From Macrostomum lignano (Eukaryota), in NCBI GenBank assembly GCA_002269645.1, contig NIVC01000220.1, positions 1-21,084 on the forward strand: a stretch of 21,084 bases of DNA, given 5' to 3'. The position numbers and the translations under genes were made by a program. This document shows positions 2,483 through 21,084 of the stretch, piece after piece. Below the pieces are notes generated by a model. The model was given only the letters and a program-made list of their open reading frames with translations. It searched no databases and had not been told where the DNA came from. The stretch's first letter is position 1. Each line of letters begins with the position of its first letter.

Positions 2483-3030
2483 CCCTTTAAGGCAAAAGGG
2501 GTCGAATACGAGATAGTACGAGCGTATTCACAAATTTGAGCGATATTCGCTCAACATTTGAGAATATAATTTCTGTGCTTTGCAGCGACCTGAATGCAGA
2601 TGACTTCGTCGCATCTAAGCTGACAGCGGACAATATGATGCTCGCCATCAATGTCCCGCCGGTCTGCGCCGCCCGCTTCACTGCAGAGTTGATATTTAAA
2701 CATATCAACAAGGTTCTGCAGTCGGACTCCAGTGTCTTGGGCAACAACTTTAAATTGTTTTTACTCAAGGCCTGGGTCCCGCGGGGCGGCTGCGGCAGCC
2801 TAGATGCGGCGGAGCGCCACATCCAGGCACGCCATTCAATGGGCTATAATTACGTTGTCATTGCCAACCGCGACAAGCGGTGCCTTATCCGGGCGCTGAT
2901 TGTCGCCAAGGCATACGCCGATCTGCAGGCCAAGGCCATCACTAAGCGGGCTTGGCGGACTATCAAAGCCGACTCCTCACTGCAGACGAAGCTGACTGGG
3001 GAGCTTCAGATTGCTGCCAATCCGTATTCG

Positions 3031-3112
3031 GTGAGTAAAAATGTTCTTGCACATTTTAATTTGCATTTTTATTAATATACAAATGTTTTAGTCTTTATCA
3101 ACCATTGCACAG
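3031..3112 (+). other. Spliceosomal intron 1 of pPolB (82 nt, phase 0)
   Basis: GTGAGT donor, TTGCACAG acceptor, ~26% GC between GC-rich coding segments. A further 1-nt frameshift near 3140 is needed to join the 3157 ORF. Confidence 0.75.
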
Positions 3113-5048
3113 GCCGGGCCTTTCTGGGTTGACGTGCTCCTCAACTGCTCGCCGCCATGAACGCTCAGTCACCCGGCCGGGATTTCGGCGTTCGTGTGTA
3201 CAGTGCTGAGGGAGGCAACACGTGTGTGTATGCCCTGCCCGGCAACACGGTGCTGAATCTGCACCTAATTGGCGAACACTTTAACGCGGTGTGCAAGGTA
3301 CCGCCATTTTTCGGTGCTCGCCGCTATTGTGAAAGCTGCCAGCAGCCGTACGACTGCGTGTCTGGAGAACACAAGTGCGCCAACACCTGCCCTCAGTGTA
3401 AAGTGCCCGGCTCCAATTGCAAGAGCCTGCGGTGTGACTATAAGCGCTGCGCTGATTGTGGCCTCAAGTGCTACAATCAGCAGTGCTTTAACAATCACCG
3501 CCAAAAAAACCGAGCCGGCAGGTCTCGCTGCAGCTCCATACGCGTCTGCTCCAAATGCGGATATTTGGAGGAGATGAAAGCGGGCCAGAAGGAGCCGGAG
3601 CACAAGTGCGGGCATGTCAAGTGCCCACTGTGTAAACAGTACGACGAGGCCGGCTCACATTTGTGTTTCGTCAAGGCTCCCAAAGTGAAAGCTTCGACTA
3701 TGCCGTACGTGTTCTACGATACGGAAACGTACACGGACGAGGAGAAGCAGCATCACGTGCATCTGGTGACTGCCGTCACGTGCTGCGAGACCTGCTCCGG
3801 CCGGGCGTTTCCGCGCGAGACTTGCCGCCTCTGCAATGGCCTGCATAGCGCCGCCAATTGTCTGACTGGCCGCGATCTGGGGGAGGAATTCTCCAATTGC
3901 GTCAGCCACTCAGACTGCGCCTGCCAAATGGCCGATTTTGTGGCTGTGGGCCCGGCCTCGCTGAATGCGTTTTTCGCCTGGCTGAGCACAGCTTTCCGTG
4001 GCGGCGCCATTGTTGTCGCGCACAATGCATCAGGCTATGATGCGTTTCTACTGCTTGGCGCTCTGCTCAACGGCCTGGCCAAGAAGCGGCCCCAAGTACT
4101 GTTCCAGGGTAGCCGGCTAATGAGCATGACGGTGGATAAATTGGTATTTAAAGATTCGTTAAACTTTATACCAATCCCGCTTGCGCAATTCCCCAAAGCG
4201 CTGGGGCTCGCTGACACAAAGCTGGCCAAGGGGACGTTTCCCCACGAGTTCAACAAGCCGGCTAATTGGAACTACGTGGGCCCCTACCCGGCTATTGAAT
4301 ATTATGGCGGCAAAGCAAACAATGACTACGACTCCATCTGTGCTTGGCTGGCCTCGCGACAGGGCGAGTTGTTCAACTTTAATCGGGAGTATCTCGATTA
4401 TTGTTTGAGTGACACAGTCCTGCTTCGCGAGGGCTGCATCAAGTACAGGGCAATAATTGGCGACATTTGCGACGGCCTGGAACCGTTTGTTCAGGCCAAT
4501 ACGATTGCCAGTTTGGCAATGGCCGTATTTACTACTAAATTCATGGAGCCCAACTCGGTCGGCGTGATTGCCCGGCAGGCCGACCAGCAGTCATTCAAGG
4601 CGCGCAAGTAACTGGCCTATTTGAATGCCACCGAATTTGGCGGGCGGCTGCGCACCTGCGACTCGACTGGCGGCGAGGCGGTCATTCTCGGCCGCAAGGT
4701 GGACGGCTTTGATGAGGCTAGCAACACTGTTTTGCAGTTTCTTGGTTGTTTCTACCATGGCTGCGAGCAGTGCATGCCCGATCAGGATGTCGTCCACCCG
4801 CTCTGAGCCACATTCGCCACGAAACCGAGTGGTTCACTCGCGAGTTGGAGCGGCATAATTACAGTGTTCGTACAATTTGGGAACATGAATACGACGCTGT
4901 ATTGGCATCGCAGGCCGATTTTATCGCCGCAACTGCCCATCTGCGCGCTCCACTCAAGATGGAGGATGCGCTCTATGGCGGCCGCGTAGAGTGTTTTATC
5001 CCGCATGCTGTGGCCAGCGAGACTGAGACGCTCAAATATCGGGATGTG

Positions 5049-5130
5049 GTGAGTAGTGATACTACTAATATAGTAGAATATTTTGTAAAAATACAGTTTA
5101 TGAAAAATAATGCTTTATTTCAACTTGCAG
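5049..5130 (+). other. Spliceosomal intron 2 of pPolB (82 nt, phase 0), inside motif A
   Basis: GTGAGT...ACTTGCAG. Removal gives KYRDV-VSLYPTV, restoring the DxxSLYP motif. Confidence 0.93.
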
Positions 5131-5685
5131 GTCTCTCTGTACCCGACGGTGCAGTCGAAAGACCCATACCCGATTGGCCACCCGGTGCAACATCCGACGC
5201 CGCAGACGCTCAACTCTGACGCGCTGGCCAGCTACTTTAATTGGCATTGCCAAAGTGACTGTGCTACCGCCGTCGGATTTGCATATTCCGCTGCTGCCGT
5301 ACAGGGTGCAAAAGAAGCTCTTTTTTGGGCTTTGCCGCACCTGTATGGAGCAGCAGTGCGGTGGCGAGTGCTGCGACCACTCAGACGAGGAACGGGCGCT
5401 GACTGGCACCTGGGCAACGCCGGAGCTGCAAAAGGCCTTCCAGTTGGGCTACCGTCTGCAGGCTGTTCACGCGCTAGCCTACTGGACAGAGAAGCGGACC
5501 GGTCTATTCGGTGATTACGTGAATGCCTTCCTGAAGCTGAAGGCCGAATCGAGCGGCTCCCCCGGCATGTCGGATGAAGATAAGGCGGTCTATATTGCCG
5601 ATTTCTTCGCCAAGGAGGGCGTCACGCTGGACAAGGTCGAACCCAACCCAGGACTTCGCTTTGTAGCGAAAATCTTTTTGAATTC

Positions 5686-5757
5686 GTAAGTATTCATAAA
5701 TTTTGTTTTTTAAATGATTTTCTTCTACTAACAGTAGCTTTTCTTTTCACTACACAG
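5686..5757 (+). other. Spliceosomal intron 3 of pPolB (72 nt, phase 2), inside motif B
   Basis: GTAAGT...CTACACAG. Removal gives KIFLN-S(TC|G)-LWGKF, in frame with the 5807 ORF. Confidence 0.94.
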
Positions 5758-6045
5758 GCTCTGGGGCAAATTTTGTCAGCGTGACGACCTGACATCGACC
5801 GAGATTGTGTCCAGCTACGAGGACTGGCTCGCCCGGCTGACCGACCCCAACCTCAAAGTCAAGGCCTGCGAACCGATTGGCAGCGAGTTTATGCTGCTAG
5901 AGTACCGGCACCGTTACTTTAATCAGCGGCCATTCAGGTACTCCAATGTGCCAATCGGAGTCTTTACGACCACGCAGGCCCGGCTGCGCCTGTACGAGGC
6001 ATTGGAGGGGCTCGGCGAACGGGCCATTTACTGCGACACTGACTC

Positions 6046-6130
6046 GTAAGTATTGCATTGGAAAAATTCTTTTAGAATTGAATAGTTAGCATGTGGAACT
6101 AATTATCTCGTTTTTCTCTCCCCCACACAG
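6046..6130 (+). other. Spliceosomal intron 4 of pPolB (85 nt, phase 2), at the end of motif C
   Basis: GTAAGT...CCACACAG. Removal gives YCDTD-S(TC|G)-VVYRH, continuing to SLGMWTDE. Confidence 0.94.
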
Positions 6131-6538
6131 GGTCGTTTACCGGCATTCCGAGGGCCAATGGGAGCCGCCCCATGGCACGAGCCTCGGAATGTGGACCGAT
6201 GAGGTGCCCGCAGGCAGCCGGATGACCGACTTTGTAAGTGGGGGCCCAAGCTCTACACTTACATTGTCGAGGATGCGGCCGGTGTCCGCAGCCAAGTCCT
6301 GAAATGCAAGGGCATCCGCCTGACTCCGGAGATACGGGAGCGTAGCGATGACTTGCGCAACACCCTGCTACACGGCGGCTCTCTGCAGCTGCCGCAGTTT
6401 CAGTTCAGGCGCGACAAGGCGTCTTGTACCATACACACGATCAGTATGGACAAGACGTTTCAGCGCGTGCTGACGAAACGCGTGTACGGGGCCTGCAGCA
6501 GGCCTTATGGCTATAAATAATGCTGACTGACAATTCAA

Positions 6539-7260
6539 TGTACATTTTGCATTATAAAATTAGTAAAATCTATTTGTTGTACATAATTTGCATATCAATG
6601 TACATAAAGCATTTTTGCATTGTAGCTCGTACTATTGCCAAATTTATCAGCGTGAATCTATTTGTTGTACATAATTCATGTACATAAAGTATTTTTGTAT
6701 TGTATGCGGTGAAATTGCCTATGTAATTACGAGTATCTATTGTACATATTTTGCGTGTCAGACCTGCTTAAAATCATTTATGAAGAGAAAAATATTGAAA
6801 AACAATGTAAAATTTTCCGTTTATTCTATTTGCTGGTAATGTACATAAATTTTTTCCTGTAATATGCTACTGATTTATTGTAAATATATCTTCTTTGTAA
6901 ATAGTTTATATACGATGTGAGCTGTACAATTAGTTGACTCATTTAGATGAGATTGTACACCAATTCTCACCTCTGCGAACAACTGTACATGTAGTAGGGT
7001 TTCGAGTTGTACATGTAATCTTGGTGATTCATACAGAGCGCGCCGGCCGTCTGGGGAAGACACTGTACATGTAGATTAATGTAGAAGTATGTACTGCGTA
7101 CATATAGAATTGGGGATAGAACATGTACAATTTGGGATAGATAGGGATTAATGTACATGGGATTAATGTACATATCCATTTGAGATAGATAGGGATTAAT
7201 GCAGTACATGGATTAATGTACATATGCAAGTACATATAGAAATATGCTATGTATACATAT
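6539..7260 (+). repeat. AT-rich TGTACA/TGTACATA-dense region with short internal duplications (putative pPolB 3' UTR or flank)
   Basis: About 16 TGTACA hexamers in ~700 bp. Duplicated blocks at ~6566-6624 vs ~6656-6704 and ~7131-7178 vs ~7180-7228. Confidence 0.8.
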
Positions 7261-7631
7261 TTCACGCTTAGAATAGCGTTTTCATATACTACTTACTTCA
7301 TTTTCAAATAGTAGTATAATTTGCGTTTTTTGCGTCAAATCTGTCTAAAAATCGACAACAATCTGCACGATACGTAGTCTTAAAACTACAAATTTTATTA
7401 ATGATTTCCAGAACTGGCTTGTTACAGGCGGTCCAGGTGCTGAGTTAAGACGTTCAGTTAGACTTGCCATAAACAGTCAAAGATTAAATACAAATATTTT
7501 AAGTTCAGTTTTGCCGGTAAAAGTGTCACAACACGCTCAAAATCCCATTCAAGCAAGCATCAGTGTTTAATAAGTAAACACATTCGTGTCTTAAATCAGA
7601 TAACAAGTGACAGTTGAAGGTTTTTAGATGT

Positions 7632-7789
7632 TGTTGTGGGTTGATGGCTTTGCCATAGACATTTTTGTTACGCGACTGCGTTGATGAATTGAACCATGCT
7701 ATTGAGTTATGAAATAAATAATAGACGCGTCAGAGGTCAACAGACCGCTAGACTGACAATTGCTTAAGACTAAAGCCAAAAGCACAACA
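7632..7789 (+). mobile_element. 5' LTR of a Ty3/Gypsy retrotransposon (158 bp)
   Basis: Begins TGTTGTG and ends CACAACA (perfect 7-bp terminal inverted repeat), has an internal AATAAA, and is followed by a PBS-like sequence and gag. No second LTR in the window. Confidence 0.75.
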
Positions 7790-7790
7790 G

Positions 7791-7805
7791 TGGCGTCGGC
7801 AAGCA
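7791..7805 (+). promoter_or_regulatory. Degenerate primer-binding site (tRNA-Ser-like)
   Basis: TGGCGTCGGCAAGCA, 1 nt after the LTR end. Resembles the tRNA-Ser complement TGGCGTAGTCGGCAGGA with a 3-nt deletion. Confidence 0.55.
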
Positions 7806-7817
7806 TAGGCTACGAAA

Positions 7818-8414
7818 ATGCCTGGAAGTACGCCAGCATCGCCAACTAAAGGAGTTGGTAAAACGGTTTCGAGCGACAAAGCACCACCGCTTGCGATCTC
7901 GTCGAAATCAGTCCAAGCGACAAAGTCGGCAACAGCGACAGCGCAGAACCCAAGCGCACAAGTATCGAGAGGACAGCAAGTTGACATCGAAAAACTCGAT
8001 GAAAGTTCGAACTTCCAGAGGTGGTTGGACCGATTCACACTGTGCAGCGAACTCAACGGCTGGCAGGACGACACGAAAAATAAGCTGCTGCTGATTAAGC
8101 TCAGTACCAAGCTGTACGACGCATTGGCAGATCGAGCCGCTCCCAAGAAGCCGGGAGAAAAGAGCTTCGATGAACTGACCAAACTACTGGCCAGCATCCT
8201 GGAACCAAAGACGTTCGTCATGGCTGAGAGATTCAATTTCCAGCATATCACTCGCACGGCATCAATGAGCATTCGTGAGTATGCACAGCAACTCTGCATG
8301 CAGGCAGACAAGTGTCAGTTTGGCCTATCCAGAGATGAGAGACTGAGAGAAAATTTAAACCTTTCAATCATTCGAAATCATGATCCTTGCCCCATCACCT
8401 TCATGCAACCTTGA
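7818..8414 (+). mobile_element. gag: Truncated Ty3/Gypsy (Mag/K02A2.6-like) gag ORF
   Basis: FQRWLDRF...KLYDALADRAAPKKPGEKSFDELTKLL...EPKTFVMAERFNF...SIREYAQQL...ADKCQFG...ERLRE matches the Mag-type Gag pattern. Similarity ends at ~8360. No zinc knuckle or pol. Confidence 0.82.
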
Positions 8415-9287: not shown

Positions 9288-10001
9288 CTAGGTTTTGATG
9301 AACACAGCCCATCCGGGTCCGGTCAGGCTGGCTGGCGGGAAGGCGAACGGCAGCAGGCGGCAGGCGAGCAGCTGCTTGGAGAAGACGGCGCCGCTGCAGT
9401 TGGCTCTGGCGCTGCACTGGAGCAGGCAGTCCGCGTCGGACTGGGCAGCGGCCGGCCAGGACGAGTCGACGGTAGAGGTCACCGTGATGTCCGAATTCTT
9501 CAGCACAGTGTATGCATTGTTGCCTGAAAGTTGTGTAATTTTATTAAGATTTTCTCTCAGTTGAAATTCTAAGAGGCAGCGTCGAGCTAACTCACTCGGG
9601 AAGGTCATAGCAAACACGGAGTTGATTGAGAAGCCGCCACAAATCTGCTCTGGGTTTCCCGTGCACTGCCTGTTGCACATGCTATCACTGAGCTGTCCGT
9701 GGAGTCCGTAGGAGCTGCCGCAGAAGCACTGCTTGCCGACCTGCACGCCGAAGTAGGGAAAGCGGCCCAGAGAGCAGACGTTGCTGCAGAACTCGTGCGA
9801 CATGTTGTTGAGGCTGTGCACTAGGTCGCCAACACCAATACTGTACGGCCCCAGATTTTTTAACCCTTTCAGACCTGTCATATCTCTGTTCGAGTTATCA
9901 CCGTCTCGATAACAACCAACGTAGGAGAAATGAGCCACCCTGCCGGCTGCACAGGTCAGGAGGCCGCACAGCAACGCCGACTCTAACAGTGAGATTCTCA
10001 T
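9288..10001 (-). CDS. Secreted WSC-domain protein with C-terminal PAN/Apple-like Cys domain, paralog 1 (2 exons; intron 9524-9595; ~213 aa spliced)
   Basis: Signal-peptide-like N-terminus. WSC pattern YVGCY.D...C...C...YFGVQ.G.QCFCG...C...C.G.....CGG..NSVF. Intron GTGAGT...TTTCAG is 72 nt and in frame, so the ORF track reads through it. Same intron position as paralog 2. Confidence 0.88.
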   Translation of the reverse strand: MRISLLESALLCGLLTCAAGRVAHFSYVGCYRDGDNSNRDMTGLKGLKNLGPYSIGVGDLVHSLNNMSHEFCSNVCSLGRFPYFGVQVGKQCFCGSSYGLHGQLSDSMCNRQCTGNPEQICGGFSINSVFAMTFPSELARRCLLEFQLRENLNKITQLSGNNAYTVLKNSDITVTSTVDSSWPAAAQSDADCLLQCSARANCSGAVFSKQLLACRLLPFAFPPASLTGPGWAVFIKT

Positions 10002-10780: not shown

Positions 10781-12420
10781 TCAGGCATGTACACTGTCTG
10801 TCCCTCATTGGTTGTCAATTGCACAACAACCCTCGGGCAAGTTTCGTGCAAAAACCCCCTGAAAAATGGTTCCTTTCACGAAATCGTGAAAGCGAGCGAA
10901 CGAAAGTGATAAAATTTTCCCGCAGCACAGGCAATATTTTTGGCGAGCTACAAAAGTTTAAACTTTTCAGTAAAAGCATAAAACTGTAGGGACGTTGACC
11001 CTAAACTTTGCAGGCTCTAAGCAGAGCTACGGGAGATACTCGCAGCACAGGAGAAGATGATGGAAGCTGTCGAGAGCCGACACTCAGTGGCGGTTTGACA
11101 GCTTCAAGCAGGCTGCAGCACAGATTGCAACGCCACCTGATACTCCGTCGATCCCTCCACATCCCTGTTGTGTCTTTAAAGGCAACCATGTGGACACAGA
11201 GCAACCATGCTCGCAATGACCCAATCCACTGACTACAACAGCTTTGTCTCGCCCTTTGTTCGGAAGGTGGCCGCCTCCCCCAGTTACTAGCTCCCTAGCC
11301 TGTGAGTTTCCGTTATTGAAAAAATTTCTTCTATATACAATACTGTTTTTAAACATAGGAAGCAAGCCTCAAAACGAAGGTTTTCCTATTTTTTGAGCAG
11401 CTTTTTTTCTTTTCTTATCAGGTATTTCCCAAAACAATAGAAATCCTTGGAAGGACCGAACCAAAATGAAAACTAAAAAAAATCAATTCGTCAAATTTTT
11501 TTCTTCCATCTTTTATTGTCGAGATACTGCGGAAAGCGCGACCGCCCGAAAAAGAAGAGATCGAGCTTTTGCGACGATCACGGAGGAACCATGCAGCGTC
11601 GCTAGCAGCTTCCTGCTGGAAGGTGGATTTCTGCCCTTCGAGTGTCTCAAAAGCAGCGCATGAGCTGATTAAAGTAGTCAGGTTTGCGTCGTTACCTAAA
11701 TTGTGCGCTAATGTGCATAAATACGCATTCTTGTCAAAATCCCTAATTTCTAGATCCATCCTGTCTAGATCCATTGCGTGTACTGGGTGCATTCCTTTTT
11801 GCACTGGTATTTGGATTCGAACTTAGGATCATGCTGCTTATAATAGGAACCTAGTGGCACAAATGAGAAAACTTCAATTGTAAATTAATTTTTAGGAAGG
11901 TGCAGGTGGCCCTGCACTGATGGTTGAAAGTTGTTGGGACTCTGGTTTTGGGCAGCAAATTGAATGAGGTTTAAAGAATACGTATGGAAAGTGGATAATT
12001 AGAAGACTAATACAAGTAGTGAGTAAAAGTAGTATATTAGGAAGGTTTTCGAACTAAGATGATTTTGTTTTTTTCTTTTAGAATAATCAATATACTTCGT
12101 AGAATTAATGGGATTACGGGGGAAGTGAAAACTCGAATAGCACACTCAGGAAAACTATTGAAATAAATCTTAATCCCAGGAAGATGCATGGTTTAATGCC
12201 ATTTGTTAATTGCCAAAAAGCTGATTGACAATCGATTTAAAACATTTTTTATTTAACTCACACTATCTCACAGTAACAAAGCGAATTCCAGCACATCAAA
12301 AATCTTATTAGATCAAAAACCGATTTTTTTCTGAGATAAATCTTTTTCAGTTTTGTTCAGAGTCGAATCGTTGTCATGCTGTTTGGCTTCGAAGCCGCTT
12401 GTCCTTTTCTCTGAAATCAC

Positions 12421-13139
12421 CTAAGTTTTGATGAACACAGCCCACTCCGGTCCGGTCAGGCTGGCTGGCGGGAAGGCGAACGGCAGCAGGCGGCAGGCGA
12501 GCAGCTGCTTCGAGAAGACGGCGGCGCTGCAGTTGGCTCTGGCGCTGCACTGGAGCAGGCAGTCCGCGTCAGACTGGGCAGCGGCCGGCCAGGACGAGTC
12601 CACGGCAGAGGTCACCGTGATGTCCTTCAGCACAGTGTAGGCATTGCTTTCTGGAAGTTGTGGTTCCAACAAAAACCTACTCAATTAGATAAATTCGCAA
12701 CTCCAAGAGAACGGAGCAATGTTAACTTACTTGGGTAGTGCAGAGCGAACACGGAGTTGATGGTGAAGCCACCGCAAATCTGCTCTGGGTTTCCCTTGCA
12801 CTGGCTGTTACATTTGCTATCGCTGAGCTGTCCGTGGAGTCCGTAGGAGCTGCCGCAGAAGCACTGCTTGCCGACCTGCACGCCGAAGTAGGGGAAGCCG
12901 AACAGAGAGCAGAAGTTGCTGCAGACCCCGAGCGTCATGTCAGGGCTGTACATTAATGCACCGTCGGTGATGTACGATCCCAGATTGTTAAGTCCTTTCA
13001 GTGTTTTCAGGCCTGTCAAGTCTCTGTTTGGGTTAGCGGCGTCTTGGTAGCAACCGACATAAGAGAAATGAGCCACCCTGCCAGCCGCACAGGTCAAGAG
13101 GGCGCACAGCAACGCCGACTGCAGCTGGGAAATGCTCAT
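12421..13139 (-). CDS. Secreted WSC-domain protein with C-terminal PAN/Apple-like Cys domain, paralog 2 (2 exons; intron 12651-12730)
   Basis: Exon 1 MSISQLQS...FALHYP, phase-1 intron GTAAGT...TTCCAG (80 nt), exon 2 (K)SNAYTVLK...WAVFIKT*. Clear paralog of 9288-10001. Confidence 0.9.
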
Positions 13140-14640: not shown

Positions 14641-15822
14641 GTGTTAAAAACAGTAATTTACAGTAGTCTGAATCACCTTGAGTAGAATTTATACTGATGT
14701 AAAATATTGCATTCGTATGCCTGTGATTTGCGCAGTCAAAGGCTGCTAATCTTCTGGTAGGATTTTGAACTAATACTGCATAACTAGAAAATAAAATACA
14801 AATAACAGAAAAGACACAAATGTAGATTAATCAGAATTTCACCACAGCCGCCTCACGTGAGCTTGTAGTCAGAGACAATGGCCCCCGCAGCTCTGGGCTG
14901 AAGCTGCTTTTCTGAAAGTAGTTCCCAAGGCAGGCAAGCAGAACACAAGTAGGCGATGGAAGGAATTGAGAGCAGAGGCGCAAAAACTGTTTTTGACTTC
15001 ATCGTGAGCTTTCAAATTCTGCGAGCAGTCTCGGGTGACTGCTGTTCTGTTTGTGACACACTGGAAACTTTTCCTGATTCTGACACTGAGGAATCGATGG
15101 GGTTATTCAGCAACTACGAAGTCTTTTGAAGGCTTTTTTGATGAAGGAGAGTTTCTTTGTTTAAAGACAAGTACGCGAGTTTGTAGGGTTTGGATTGGAT
15201 AGGCAAGGAAGGAAAAAATTATGAATCTGCAGCAATGCCATTGTAAACTCTCGTATTCCGTTATAACCTCAGGCGGAAGAAAACCTGCTTAGATGACAAA
15301 ATTTCAGCACTTCTGTATACAGAGCCAGAGATACCACTGAGGCTTGACGAAGCCTCTTGGCGCTTCTTAGATGGATACTCAAGTTACATAACTGAGCAGA
15401 CTTCCTACAATTTCATCCCCTGGCGTCGATGGGGTGAGATATCGTGAGCTAACGACGACAAGGTTTACACAGGTAACACAGCTCAAGCAATAAGATTTAA
15501 AACGCGGGGGTTGACACGCGGGTTGCTACGGGGGCGAGGGTTAGGCGGTTAGACTCATCAGTTTTACTCTGTTTGAGTTAGAGTGTTTGGGGGAAGTCAG
15601 TTCTGAGTTCTTTTGCTGTCTTTTCGTGCGGGCCGGTCCGCGCGTCCACCCTTCGGTTGCTACGCCCCTCGGGGGTTGTATTGTAATTTGTTATTGAATT
15701 TAATATTCTTATTGAATTCAAATTACAATGCAATATTTGACACAATATGGTATAAATAACTTTTCGCTTCCAATTATTTTCGAACAGCAAGTCATGGCGG
15801 CTGCAGGAAGCGCTCACCGTCA

Positions 15823-15922
15823 CGAATCTGCGTCTCTAGAACTGAATCTGCGTCTCCAGAACTTAATCTGCGTCTCCAGGACTGAATCTGCGTCTCCAGA
15901 ACTGAATCTGCGTCTCCAGAAC
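15823..15922 (+). repeat. 20-bp minisatellite, ~5 degenerate copies
   Basis: ACTGAATCTGCGTCTCCAGA-type units, plus partial units at ~15948-15972. Confidence 0.88.
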
Positions 15923-16064
15923 TTAACAGCTAAAGCAAACAGAGAAGCTGCGTCTAGACTGAATCTGCGTCTGGGCCACTTGATGTGCTATAAATAGTTC
16001 AGGCTACATTCTGGTCTCCAAACTGAAGAGTACATGCAGGCTCATCAATGCACAACTTCAGTGC

Positions 16065-16092
16065 GAAATGCGAAATGCGAAAATCGAAAAGC
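16065..16092 (+). promoter_or_regulatory. GAAA x4 array with 7-bp period upstream of GIMAP copy 1 (IRF-E/ISRE-like)
   Basis: GAAATGC GAAATGC GAAAATC GAAAAGC. Cores are conserved in copy 2 while spacers differ. Function is inferred. Confidence 0.4.
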
Positions 16093-16279
16093 GTACGAAG
16101 AGGACCACTGAGGCAGTACAGGTACTACCTGCTCTAGACAATAGCAAATATGCTTAATGATGAGCTTTACCTAAAGCTCTAGGCACTACTCTGTTCAAAC
16201 TCTATATATCTGTTCAAAGTTTCAAGAACAGAAAACTACTAAGCCATCTCTAACCTACAGAGAAGACTGCACTACAGCA

Positions 16280-17213
16280 ATGTCAGCCGAACAGCCACAA
16301 GACTCCAGCCAGATGACAACGGTGGTCTGAGCAAGACGGGCAGCGGAAAGAGCTCTCTAGCCAACACCCTAATGAACGAGAAAAGCTTCATAGTCGGAAA
16401 CGGCTGATCTGGCAGACGAACCAGTGCGAGGCGCAGATGCGAACGCGTCCGCGGTCGCAGCCTGCTGGTCTGGACACTCCCGGAACCATGGACTCCAAGG
16501 ACGTTAACATGCCGCAGGGTGAGCTGCTGCGCACCCTGAACTGTCCGTGCGGCGTTGACGCCTTTCTCGTGGTCGCCAGAGCGGACGTGCGCTTCACCAA
16601 CGAAGAGTGGGCCATCCGCCAGACTGTGGACGTGTTCGGCCCGGAGTCGTGCAAGCGCGTCATCGTGGTGTTCAGCAGAGGTGACCATTTTGACAACGAC
16701 ATCAACGAATTTAAAAATAAAGAGCTGAAGGTCGCGCGAGAAGAAATTCCTGGATTCGACAAGATGATGAAGGACTTCGGAGACCGCTATGTGCTGATGG
16801 ACAACGGCAAGAGGTGCGACACGGAAGTGCAGGAACGGCAGGTGGCATCGCTGATGGGCCTTATCGATGAGGTATCGAAGCTGAACCCGAGCAAGTACAA
16901 GTACCTGGATAAGCAGACTGAGGAGCGGAAACGCCGAGAGGAGGCTGAGGCCCAGAAGCAGAATGACGTAGAAGATGGAAAAGATGGAAGCCGAGATCAA
17001 GCTTTTAAAGAAACAGCATCAGCAGCAGCAGCAGCAGCATCAGCAGCATCAGCAGCAGCATCAGCAGCAGCATCAGCAGCATCAGCGGCAGCAGCAATCA
17101 ATATATGCGCAGCGCCAACAGCCACAGCTCAGTTTAGGCTTTGTGGGCATTGTGAGCAGTCTCGGACAGGAGGCTTGAGCAATCATTGCAAGTCCTGTGG
17201 TCGACGCTGCTAA
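16280..17213 (+). pseudogene. AIG1/GIMAP-family GTPase, copy 1 (intronless, frameshifted in the 5' part)
   Basis: ATG at 16280. P-loop SKTGSGKS out of frame, G3 DTPG, G4-like FSRGD, family motifs RFTNEE, VFG, YVLMDN. Open from 16437 to 17213. Indels at ~16325-16475 may be real or assembly errors. Confidence 0.82.
17014..17096 (+). repeat. GCA/CAG imperfect microsatellite in the GIMAP C-terminus (poly-Ala/Ser in frame, poly-Gln/His in an alternative frame)
   Basis: (CAG)n interrupted by CAT. Equivalent tract in copy 2 at 21047-21084. Confidence 0.9.
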
Positions 17214-18070: not shown

Positions 18071-19320
18071 TCAATGACAAGGTCATTGTTGTTCAATAGA
18101 AAATAAAAGAAACAGCCTGTGTTCATACAAACTAATGAATTATTGTCGAGACTACAGAATCTCTGTAAATTTTTTACTACGTAAATTATTTTTTGTATAT
18201 CTGCGATTTGCGCAGTCAAAGGCTGCTAATCTTCTGGTAGGATTTTGAACTAATACTGCATAACTAGAAAATAAAATACAAATAACAGAAAAGACACAAA
18301 TGTAGATTAATCAGAATTTCACCACAGCCGCCTCACGTGAGCTTGTAGTCAGAGACAATGGCCCCCGCAGCTCTGGGCTGAAGCTGCTTTTCTGAAAGTA
18401 GTTCCCAAGGCAGGCAAGCAGAACACAAGTAGGCGATGGAAGGAATTGAGAGCAGAGGCGCAAAAACTGTTTTTGACTCCATCGTGAGCTTTCAAATTCT
18501 GCGAGCCGTCTCGGGTGACTGCTGTTCTGCTTCTGACACACTGGAAACTTTTCCTGATTCTGACACTGAGGAATCGATGGGTTATTCAGCAACTATTGTA
18601 AGGCCTTTTTTGATGAAGGATAGTTTCTTTGTTTAAAGACAAGTGCGCGAGTTTGTAGGGCTGGATTGGATAGGCAAGGAAGGAAAAAATTATGAATCTG
18701 CAGCAATGCCATTGTAAACTCTCGTATTCCGTTATAACCTCAGGCGACGAAAACTTCCGATGACAAAATTTCAGCACTTCTGTAGAAAGAGGCAGAGAGA
18801 TACCACTGAGGCTTGACGAAGCCTCTTGACGATTCTTAGATGAATACTCAAGTTACATAACTGAGCAGACTTCCTACAATTTCATCCCCTGGCGTCGATG
18901 GGGTGAGATATCGTGAGCTAACGACGACAAGGTTTACATAACACAGCTCAAGCAATAAGATTTAAAACGCGGGGGTTGACACGCGGGTTGCTACGGGGGC
19001 GAGGGTTAGGCGGTTAGACTCATCAGTTTTACTCTGTTTGAGTTAGAGTGTTTGGGGGAAGCCAGTTCTGAGTTCTTTTCCTGTCTTTTCGTGCGGGCCG
19101 GTCCGCGCGTCCACCCCTCGGTTGCTATGCCCTCAGGGTTGGCCGCCGGTCTTGGGTGCGCCCGCTGCTCCTCCCCAGGAGCGGCCTCCTTGTCGGGCTC
19201 ATTTAATATTCAATAGCAAATAACAATACAATATTTGACACAATATAGTATAAAGAACATTTCGCTTCCAATTATTTTCCAACAGCAAGTCATGGCGGCT
19301 GCAGGAAGCGCTCACCGTCA

Positions 19321-19657
19321 CGAATCTGCGTCTCCAGGACTGAACCTGCGTCTCCAGGACTGAACCTGCGTCTCCAGGACTGAACCTGCGTCTCCAGGAC
19401 TGAACCTGCGTCTCCAGGACTGAACCTGCGTCTCCAGGACTGAACCTGCGTCTCCAGGACTGAACCTGCGTCTCCAGGACTGAACCTGCGTCTCCAGGAC
19501 TGAACCTGCGTCTCCAGGACTGAACCTGCGTCTCCAGGACTGAACCTGCGTCTCCAGGACTGAACCTGCGTCTCCAGGACTGAACCTGCGTCTCCAGGAC
19601 TGAACCTGCGTCTCCAGGACTGAACCTGCGTCTCTAGGACTGAATCTGCGGCTCCAG
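19321..19657 (+). repeat. 20-bp minisatellite, ~17 copies, mostly identical
   Basis: TGAACCTGCGTCTCCAGGAC repeated. Only the first and last two units differ. Confidence 0.97.
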
Positions 19658-20080
19658 TTTCGTTTTGTGTTAAGCCGAGCAAACAAGGAGTGGGATAAAG
19701 GGGCATGGTAATTCTTCACTATCATGGTACGTCAAGTGCATAACCCCAGTACTTCAACATAGGTAGCCTATCTACAATCAGGAACAACTTTAAAAAGATG
19801 CACTTTTTACAAGGCCAGTAGGCGTGTTTTGTCTTTCTTTCAATCTCAGCTGTCACGAAAATATTACAATTTGATTATTGTCGGTTTCAAGGATTTTCCT
19901 GGTTATTTCATCATGGAAAATTATTTGTGTACATTCAGCTGGAATGACTGCAGCAGACTAGACAGCTAAAGCAAACAGAGAAACTACTGGAGCACTTGGT
20001 GTGCTATAAATAGTTTAGGCGTACATTCTGGACCAAATTTGAAGAGTACATGCATGCTCATCAATGCACAGCTTCAATGC

Positions 20081-20108
20081 GAAATACGAAAAGTGAAAAT
20101 CGAAAAGC
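20081..20108 (+). promoter_or_regulatory. GAAA x4 array with 7-bp period upstream of GIMAP copy 2 (IRF-E/ISRE-like)
   Basis: GAAATAC GAAAAGT GAAAATC GAAAAGC, containing GAAAAGTGAAA. Confidence 0.4.
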
Positions 20109-20310
20109 GGTACGAGGACCACATTAAAGAATGTTGTGCAGGTACTACCTGCTCTTGACAATGGCAAATAGAGTTTATTGATGAGCTTTACCTAAAACTC
20201 GAGGAACTACTCTGTTCAAAAAACTCTATATATACAGCGGGTGTTCAAAGCTCCAAGAACAGAAAACTACTAAGCCATCTCTAACCTACAGAGAAGACTG
20301 CACTACAGCA

Positions 20311-21084
20311 ATGTCAGCCGATCAGCCGCAAGACTCCAGCCAGATGACAACGGTGGTGCTGATGAGCAAGACAGGCAGCGGAAAGAGCTCTCTAGCCAAC
20401 ACCCTAATGGAGGAGGAAAGCTTCAAAGTCGGAAATGGCATGAGTCGCAGACGAAGCAGTGCGAGGCGCAGATGCGAACGGTCCGCGTCGCAGCCTGCTG
20501 GTGGTGGACACTCCCGGAACCATGGACTCCAAGGACGTTAACATGCCGCAGGGTGAGCTGCTGCGCACGCTGAACAAGTGTCCGTGCGGCGTTGACGCCT
20601 TTCTCGTGGTCGCCAGAGCGACGTCCGCTTCACAAACGAAGAGTGCCTGGCTATCCGCCAGACTGTGGAAGTGTTCGGTCCGGATCGTGCAAGCGCGTCA
20701 TCGTGGTGTTCAGCAGAGGTGACCATTTTGACAACGACATCAACGAATTTAAAAATAAAGAGCTGAAAGTCGCGCGAGAAGAAATTCCTGAGCTCGACAA
20801 GATGATGAAGGACTTCGGAGACCGCTACGTGCTGATGGACAACGCAAGAGGTGCGACCCGGGTATGCAGGAACGGCAGGTGGCAACGCTGATGGGCCTTA
20901 TCGATGAGGTATCGAAGCTGAACCCGAGCAAGTACAAGTACCTGGATAAGCAGACTGAGGAGCGGAAACGCCGAGAGGAGACTGAGGCGCAGAAGCAGAA
21001 TGACGTAGAAGATGGAAAAGATGGAAGCCGAGATCAAGCTTTTAAAGCAGCAGCAGCATCAGCGACAGCAGCAGCAGCATCAGC
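20311..21084 (+). pseudogene. AIG1/GIMAP-family GTPase, copy 2 (frameshifted, 3'-truncated by the window)
   Basis: MSADQPQDSSQMTTVVLMSKTGSGKSSLANTL, then LLVVDTPG, CPCGVDAFLVV, VIVVFSRGD in successive frames. Several 1-nt indels at positions different from copy 1. Confidence 0.82.

Follow-up and report, generated by a model that had tools for sequence, protein, structure and literature searches.

Candidate Pumilio response elements behind the replicase gene of a Polinton-type family in Macrostomum lignano, with parallels in distant Polintons

Results

Organization of the locus

The window analysed here, a stretch of 21,084 nucleotides from Macrostomum lignano (contig NIVC01000220.1), carries the remains of a Polinton-type protein-primed family B DNA polymerase gene (pPolB), whose features are collected in Table 1. 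The gene starts abruptly after a 161-bp satellite (15.5 copies, 98% identity, positions 1-2482), which abuts the truncated 5' end of the polymerase and replaces the left end of the element. The final stop codon, at 6518-6520, is preceded by in-frame stops at 4609 and 4804 and by frame breaks near 4805, 5240 and 6240, as seen in a three-frame translation. Being 5'-truncated, with internal stops and frame breaks, the window copy is a dead relic, unable to make a polymerase. The family itself is multi-copy, since 29 of 32 longer relatives belong to M. lignano or are close models, the best of them 99% identical. Its profile matches the phi29 polymerase (E=1.7e-5) and, weakly, the Vsr endonuclease (E=0.4-0.5).

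These traits recall the VSR-bearing pPolB2 Polinton/Maverick elements (adintoviruses) of marine nematodes and molluscs, which, according to section 9 of PMC10748475, likewise combine PF03175 with an N-terminal part rich in Cys and an insert that weakly resembles Vsr. Relatives of the M. lignano gene are also flanked by integrase, ATPase and protease genes, as in Polinton/Maverick elements, whereas the M. lignano gene differs in having spliceosomal introns and in lying in a window where no other Polinton gene was found: among the 9 of 20 window ORFs scanned, none encodes an integrase, ATPase, protease or capsid protein, but the copy is truncated. An integrase domain is similarly absent from the precomputed Pfam column of about 29 M. 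lignano pPolB database models, and the M. lignano family possibly consists of polymerase-only elements.

Three introns are documented by joints in contigs of sequencing runs guessed to be RNA (Table 1), and no intron joints occur among the contigs of run X14. The spliced contigs differ from the window copy by several per cent, and therefore originate from paralogues; these paralogues are spliced and probably transcribed.

Elsewhere, the window contains a tandem duplication of WSC(-PAN) genes whose starts resemble signal peptides (9288-10001 and 12420-13139, reverse strand) and a duplication of about 3.5-4 kb with an AIG1/GIMAP GTPase gene (14700-17213 and 18190-21084), inside which a 20-bp minisatellite counts 5 versus 17 copies.

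Table 1. Features of the pPolB gene and of its 3' flank in the window
Feature	Position	Strand	Basis or remark
Polinton-type protein-primed family B DNA polymerase gene, 5'-truncated and broken	2486..6520	+	PF03175, E=3e-13
Three GT..AG introns	5049-5130, 5686-5757, 6046-6130	+	Joints in contigs of runs X1, X5 and X6, guessed to be RNA
Fourth intron, predicted only	starts 3031	+	Splice signals
AT-rich (26% GC) non-coding 3' flank, putative 3' UTR	6521..6910	+	One contig of a diverged copy, from a run guessed to be RNA, spans the stop and the region
Near-match TGTACATT to TGTAHATA	6539	+	Same pPolB 3' flank
Poly(A)-signal variants	TATAAA 6553, AGTAAA 6562, CATAAA 6603/6683/6844	+	Motif scan of the flank
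Degenerate tandem duplication, two units, 81% identical	6567..6704 (units 6567-6624 and 6655-6704)	+	Supplies 2 of 8 sites
Eight TGTAHATA, putative Pumilio response elements	6578, 6599, 6666, 6679, 6741, 6840, 6879, 6896	+	pPolB 3' flank, 6578..6903
Higher-copy TGTACA/GGGATTAATGTACAT-rich repeat	6911..7419	.	Contigs with other sequence before 6911; holds sites 7167 and 7217

The 3' flank and the repeat behind it

The segment 6520-6910 may lie inside the mature pPolB mRNA, as a putative 3' UTR. A 424-nt contig of run X5, derived from a diverged copy, extends from about the pPolB stop to 6944, but this run also has unspliced contigs, so that the contig is no proof of inclusion in mRNA; contigs as such do not reveal a poly(A) site. 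The contigs of run X6, whose expressed copy is a diverged paralogue, leave 6466-6900 uncovered, a contig gap that is no evidence either way. The forward strand displays neither AATAAA nor ATTAAA within 6500-7450. The tandem duplication varies between copies, two contig joints (6593>6671 and 6598>6680, skipping 77 and 81 nt) indicating one unit fewer elsewhere.

Beyond 6911 begins a repeat of higher copy number, possibly the terminal region or terminal repeat of the element. In a search for terminal inverted repeats, 6500-7420 matched nothing in the remainder of the window. Summed contig depth in X14, which gives no true copy number, is much higher at 7075-7335. In each of the four runs, those guessed to be RNA included, the stretch 7075-7340 reaches a very high summed depth. 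This stretch contains an inverted pair ATACTACT...AGTAGTAT at about 7285-7318; it may be a non-autonomous element or a terminal repeat carried in many transcripts. Behind the polymerase, the repeat is cut by a probable Ty3/Gypsy remnant (7420-8414), with a TGTT start at about 7420, a primer-site-like TGGCG at about 7791 and a gag-like ORF with DUF7083 at 7818-8414.

A sense-strand cluster of TGTAHATA words

The initial annotation had pointed to ten canonical Pumilio/PUF elements (TGTAHATA) on the sense strand downstream of the pPolB stop, eight of them within about 390 nt of it, with none on the opposite strand. Our motif count recovered all ten at the same coordinates and none on the reverse strand within 6500-7300; the last of the eight ends 383 nt past the stop. 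Both the identity of the motif and its placement hold. The whole window contains 12 TGTAHATA against 1.18 ± 1.15 in dinucleotide shuffles, the remaining two being on the reverse strand (11332 and 20229).

An enrichment test against shuffled sequence, which had also been proposed, places the cluster far above chance. In 6520-6910, the 8 sites compare with 0.24, 0.60 and 2.09 expected from di-, tri- and tetranucleotide-preserving shuffles, none of 2000 reaching 8, and the probability is 0.0025 even when 5-mers are preserved. The annotation had rightly warned that some sites arise from local duplication. Once the duplicated unit is removed, 6 sites in 314 nt remain, versus 0.19, 0.54 and 1.28 expected, and 0 of 2000 shuffles reach 6 at each level. 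The high-copy TGTACA repeat gave rise to the sites at 7167 and 7217 as by-products: both lie in a 48-nt tandem repeat at 7130-7225, among nine TGTACA palindromes, where 2 sites versus 2.24 expected (tetranucleotide-matched) is chance level.

On the forward strand, 8 of 15 TGTA in the cluster continue as HATA; with 1-2482 and 6520-7420 set aside, none of the 49 TGTA elsewhere in the window does so. The introns of the same gene, equally AT-rich over about 300 nt, contain a single TGTA and no TGTAHATA. The flanks of three host genes in the window have no site, three genes being too few for a baseline. The sites are predicted to be of average or low local accessibility (percentiles 7-87). The global fold of 6517-6950, a pairing of self-complementary UGUACA cores, was not trusted. 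A Nanos-Pumilio element is defined, according to the portion of PMC4995099 consulted, by an A/U-rich Nanos-binding site directly 5' of UGUA; the residue at −1 is A or T in all eight sites, which is unremarkable at 74% AT.

The word peaks behind the stop of distant pPolB genes

For comparison with distant relatives, a first set of loci was assembled from the best 80 of 490 metagenome relatives plus 12 viral contigs; 71 of these 92 had a locatable stop with at least 200 nt behind it, and de-duplication left 56, at 20-43% identity. Within 300 nt past the stop, they display 28 sense sites, in 18 of the 56 loci, and 4 antisense sites, for a shuffle mean of 3.4 and a maximum of 10, while only 2 sites lie behind 87 other ORFs of the same contigs. 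No overlap with AATAAA exists for 21 of the 28 sites. A second set was drawn from genome contigs, where 19 of 21 loci were usable and 14 remained once duplicates were removed. It gave 4 sense sites in 2 of 14 loci, 3 of them from one locus, and 1 antisense site (shuffle 0.54, maximum 3); the direction is the same as in the first set, but the signal is weak. Host DNA is likely in several of these records, whose titles describe bins of animal-associated bacteria.

Over the 70 pooled loci, sense sites exceed antisense sites in 18 and the reverse holds in 3 (P=7e-4), 50 loci being site-free within 300 nt. When 8-mers were ranked with no prior choice, TGTAAATA came first, being found in sense in 15 loci and in antisense in 1, against 2.44 expected. 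Site density reaches 1.57/kb in the first 300 nt past the stop and does not exceed 0.41/kb in any other bin. When only non-coding flanks no shorter than 200 nt are considered, a site occurs in 15 of 40 behind pPolB versus 2 of 52 behind other ORFs. Within the 22 contigs having both kinds of flank, 14 sites fall in 5503 nt behind pPolB (10 loci) versus 1 in 9449 nt behind 36 other ORFs (P=8e-6).

The distant loci are Polintons, given their pPolB neighbours: a Pfam scan of 40 ORFs from one clade revealed an integrase with a chromodomain, an A32/IVa2 ATPase and a C5 protease. One Polinton contig (L038, 4175-4720) has a TATA-binding protein gene (PF00352, E=4e-27) beside the integrase. In one Polinton family (L116:5657, L117:7157, L118:9594 and L124:4197, reverse strand), TGTAAATA contains the pPolB stop codon itself; the convergent integrase flank of this family also has such sites. 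Thirteen integrase-anchored loci, mostly one related family, were left out as a set; the integrase flank of one integrase-anchored family likewise has two sites, which counts against the pattern.

The pattern is not common to all pPolB genes. A second, distantly related class, in which 24 of 25 loci were usable and 21 remained once duplicates were removed, many of them with very short flanks, has no strand bias: 5 sense sites lie in 3 of these 21 loci versus 4 antisense sites in 4, and TGTA shows no strand bias either. In trees, site-bearing loci are scattered over many branches; the M. lignano row is a long branch in one tree, and its closest locus in the other (L032) has no site.

Part of the comparative signal may reflect an ordinary animal 3' end, the other Polinton genes having no true 3' ends there, since UGUANAUA is already present in 20% of human 3' UTRs (PMC2522278). 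Altogether, the feature is real, partly inflated by repeats, and has an unexpected cross-lineage echo.

Specificity of the word

The PRE consensus UGUAHAUA is given with tolerance at positions 5 and 8 in the consulted parts of PMC5758885 and PMC2522278, the former also using the looser definition UGUANAUW. With the relaxed motif TGTANATW, the strand asymmetry of 6520-6910 falls to 9 to 3, from 8 to 0. Behind pPolB stops, sense and antisense counts by ending are 32/5 for HATA, 11/1 for HATT, 1/1 for GATA and 3/5 for HAAA, and 8/8 when the first U is changed. This pattern of variants fits the PUF code rather than a forkhead or promoter signal. Word choice differs between the distant loci, which mostly use TGTAAATA and TGTATATA, and the window, where TGTACATA predominates.

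Alternative explanations

The main rival is nuclear 3'-end processing, with repeated UGUA bound by cleavage factor Im (CFIm25) at a poly(A) site deprived of AAUAAA, the PUF match being incidental or secondary; we consider it unlikely as the full account, and it could coexist with Pumilio control. CFIm is a UGUA-binding factor that can work where AAUAAA is missing. Its known elements upstream of poly(A) sites share with the present cluster the UGUA core, the strand and the position. The 391-nt cluster region contains 15 TGTA on the forward strand, and the 7 on the reverse strand simply reflect the palindrome TGTACA; the forward strand has no AATAAA nearby, and three TGTACATAAA join UGUA to the variant CATAAA. 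Among the distant loci, bare TGTA is twice as frequent in sense as in antisense behind pPolB (160 vs 79), a surplus absent behind other ORFs (107/116), and TGTAAATAAA occurs in 6 of the 56 loci of the first set. However, HAUA at positions 5-8 is not required by CFIm25, and it is precisely to these positions that the excess is confined: 32 of 177 TGTA continue as HATA, whereas seven AT-matched endings together stand only 1.4-fold over shuffle. The word is moreover rare at other ORFs with AATAAA or ATTAAA in their 3' flank (3 of 47 vs 13 of 33).

A by-product of repeat expansion, whereby a TGTACA-containing unit was duplicated near the end of the element and the strand bias stems from copying one seed, seems improbable for the cluster as a whole. 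It accounts fully for 7167 and 7217 and draws on the 81% duplication and its copy-number variants, on the reduced asymmetry of the relaxed motif and on the 16 TGTACA palindromes of 6520-7300, a stretch whose 5-mer-preserving shuffles do reach 10 sites (P=0.12). A comparable array exists at L125 (14014-14101, reverse strand), where five TGTAHATA sit in a tandem repeat of roughly 20 nt just upstream of an ORF. Yet two of the six sites that survive de-duplication are TGTAAATA, which is not palindromic, and the peak behind unrelated pPolB genes is left unexplained.

A reading of the words as DNA elements, whether promoter sites (forkhead-like or TATA-like) that serve a gene downstream or sites where proteins bind the terminal repeat, is very unlikely. 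TGTAAATA resembles forkhead sites, a site at L114 overlaps a TATA-like TATATAAA 46 nt before the ATPase start, the L125 repeats precede a start codon by no more than about 110 nt, and L116 and L117 have sites on both strands between convergent genes. Against this, start codons show no upstream surplus (0 of 33 pPolB, 2 of 102 other ORFs, 3 of 28 tandem neighbours), most sites (23, in 12 of 22 loci) have no ORF within the next 500 nt, the forkhead word GTAAACA is not enriched (4/5 sense/antisense), and the window has no element gene downstream. On these start-codon, downstream-ORF and GTAAACA counts, the forkhead and promoter readings were largely rejected.

The suggestion of the annotation that the transcript may act as a PUF sponge, taken here as de-repression of host mRNAs in the manner of NORAD, is hardly credible and finds no support: the flank does reach about 20 sites/kb in a family of many copies, against a total of 17 sites for NORAD (per the part of PMC4947167 consulted), but a sponge needs abundant cytoplasmic RNA, nothing in the contigs, which cannot measure abundance, points to it, and the window copy has no 5' end and early stops.

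Discussion

Comparison with known systems

The arrangement behind pPolB is that of animal PREs (UGUAHAUA or UGUANAUA), such as the Drosophila hunchback NRE and the human PUM1/2 targets: an identical 8-mer, in several copies, in sense, behind the stop. The putative target differs, being the replicase of a virus-like transposon and not a host gene. In contrast to the hunchback NRE, no separate upstream Box A (Brat) was found, GTTGT overlapping the site itself at 6576 and 6664. With the PUM decoy lncRNA NORAD, the cluster shares multiple PREs in repeated units born of duplication; here, however, they occupy the short flank of a coding gene, number 6-8 and come with no sign of an abundant non-coding RNA.

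Proposed Pumilio control of the replicase mRNA

We propose, with a probability of about 0.58, that host Pumilio destabilizes the mRNA of a Polinton-type replicase via the TGTAHATA words of the pPolB 3' flank. The segment 6520-6910 would be the 3' UTR of pPolB in a multi-copy family and its words genuine Pumilio response elements. In intact members, host Pumilio would occupy several sites and recruit CCR4-NOT, so that the replicase mRNA would be short-lived and poorly translated. What is observed is the surplus of the motif, its strand and place, the splicing of the family and the enrichment across lineages, whereas presence in the mRNA, PUF binding, direction of the effect and cell type are inferred. 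The direction of this effect is taken from canonical PUM function: in the parts of the respective articles consulted, PUM binding recruits CCR4-NOT and lowers mRNA levels (PMC5758885), and the response increases with the number of sites (PMC4995099). The outcome would be a limited dose of replication enzyme in the typical sites of Pumilio expression, stem and germ cells, and hence in cells where the element can be inherited; Pumilio is listed in the conserved germline multipotency set in the consulted portion of PMC5381599. The trait would be old and recurrent in this pPolB class, M. lignano presenting an extreme version amplified by local duplication.

PUF repression of the transcript, as initially annotated, thus stands in part: the peak of sense sites behind distant pPolB stops, and not behind their neighbours, speaks in its favor, whereas the copy in the window cannot make a polymerase, which leaves the role to other members of the family. 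Within the portions consulted, PMC10748475 reports no 3'-UTR regulation of Polintons, and the main text and four supplementary files of PMC5173321 contain no mention of Pumilio; a search of these four files for pPolB terms also returned no matches. Among the titles and abstract beginnings searched, a corpus that excludes subscription journals, none links Pumilio to Polinton transcripts. The motif is a textbook element; the class of target would be new.

Polintons populate many animal genomes and are almost never seen replicating, and how they stay quiet or switch on is an open question. If Pumilio control is true, the action of an RNA-binding protein of the host on the 3' UTR of the replicase would constitute a layer of control separate from piRNA silencing. 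M. lignano allows a direct test, as transgenesis is established in it (PMC5730564) and its poly(A) sites can be mapped from 3'-end libraries (PMC5173321). A broader and more tentative idea, which we hold as possible though doubtful, is that Vsr-type pPolB Polintons have repeatedly placed their replicase mRNA, and not their other genes, under Pumilio as a latency or dose switch. Were this so, the self-synthesis of the element would be coupled to how far the host cell has differentiated, and the M. lignano family would represent the extreme case.
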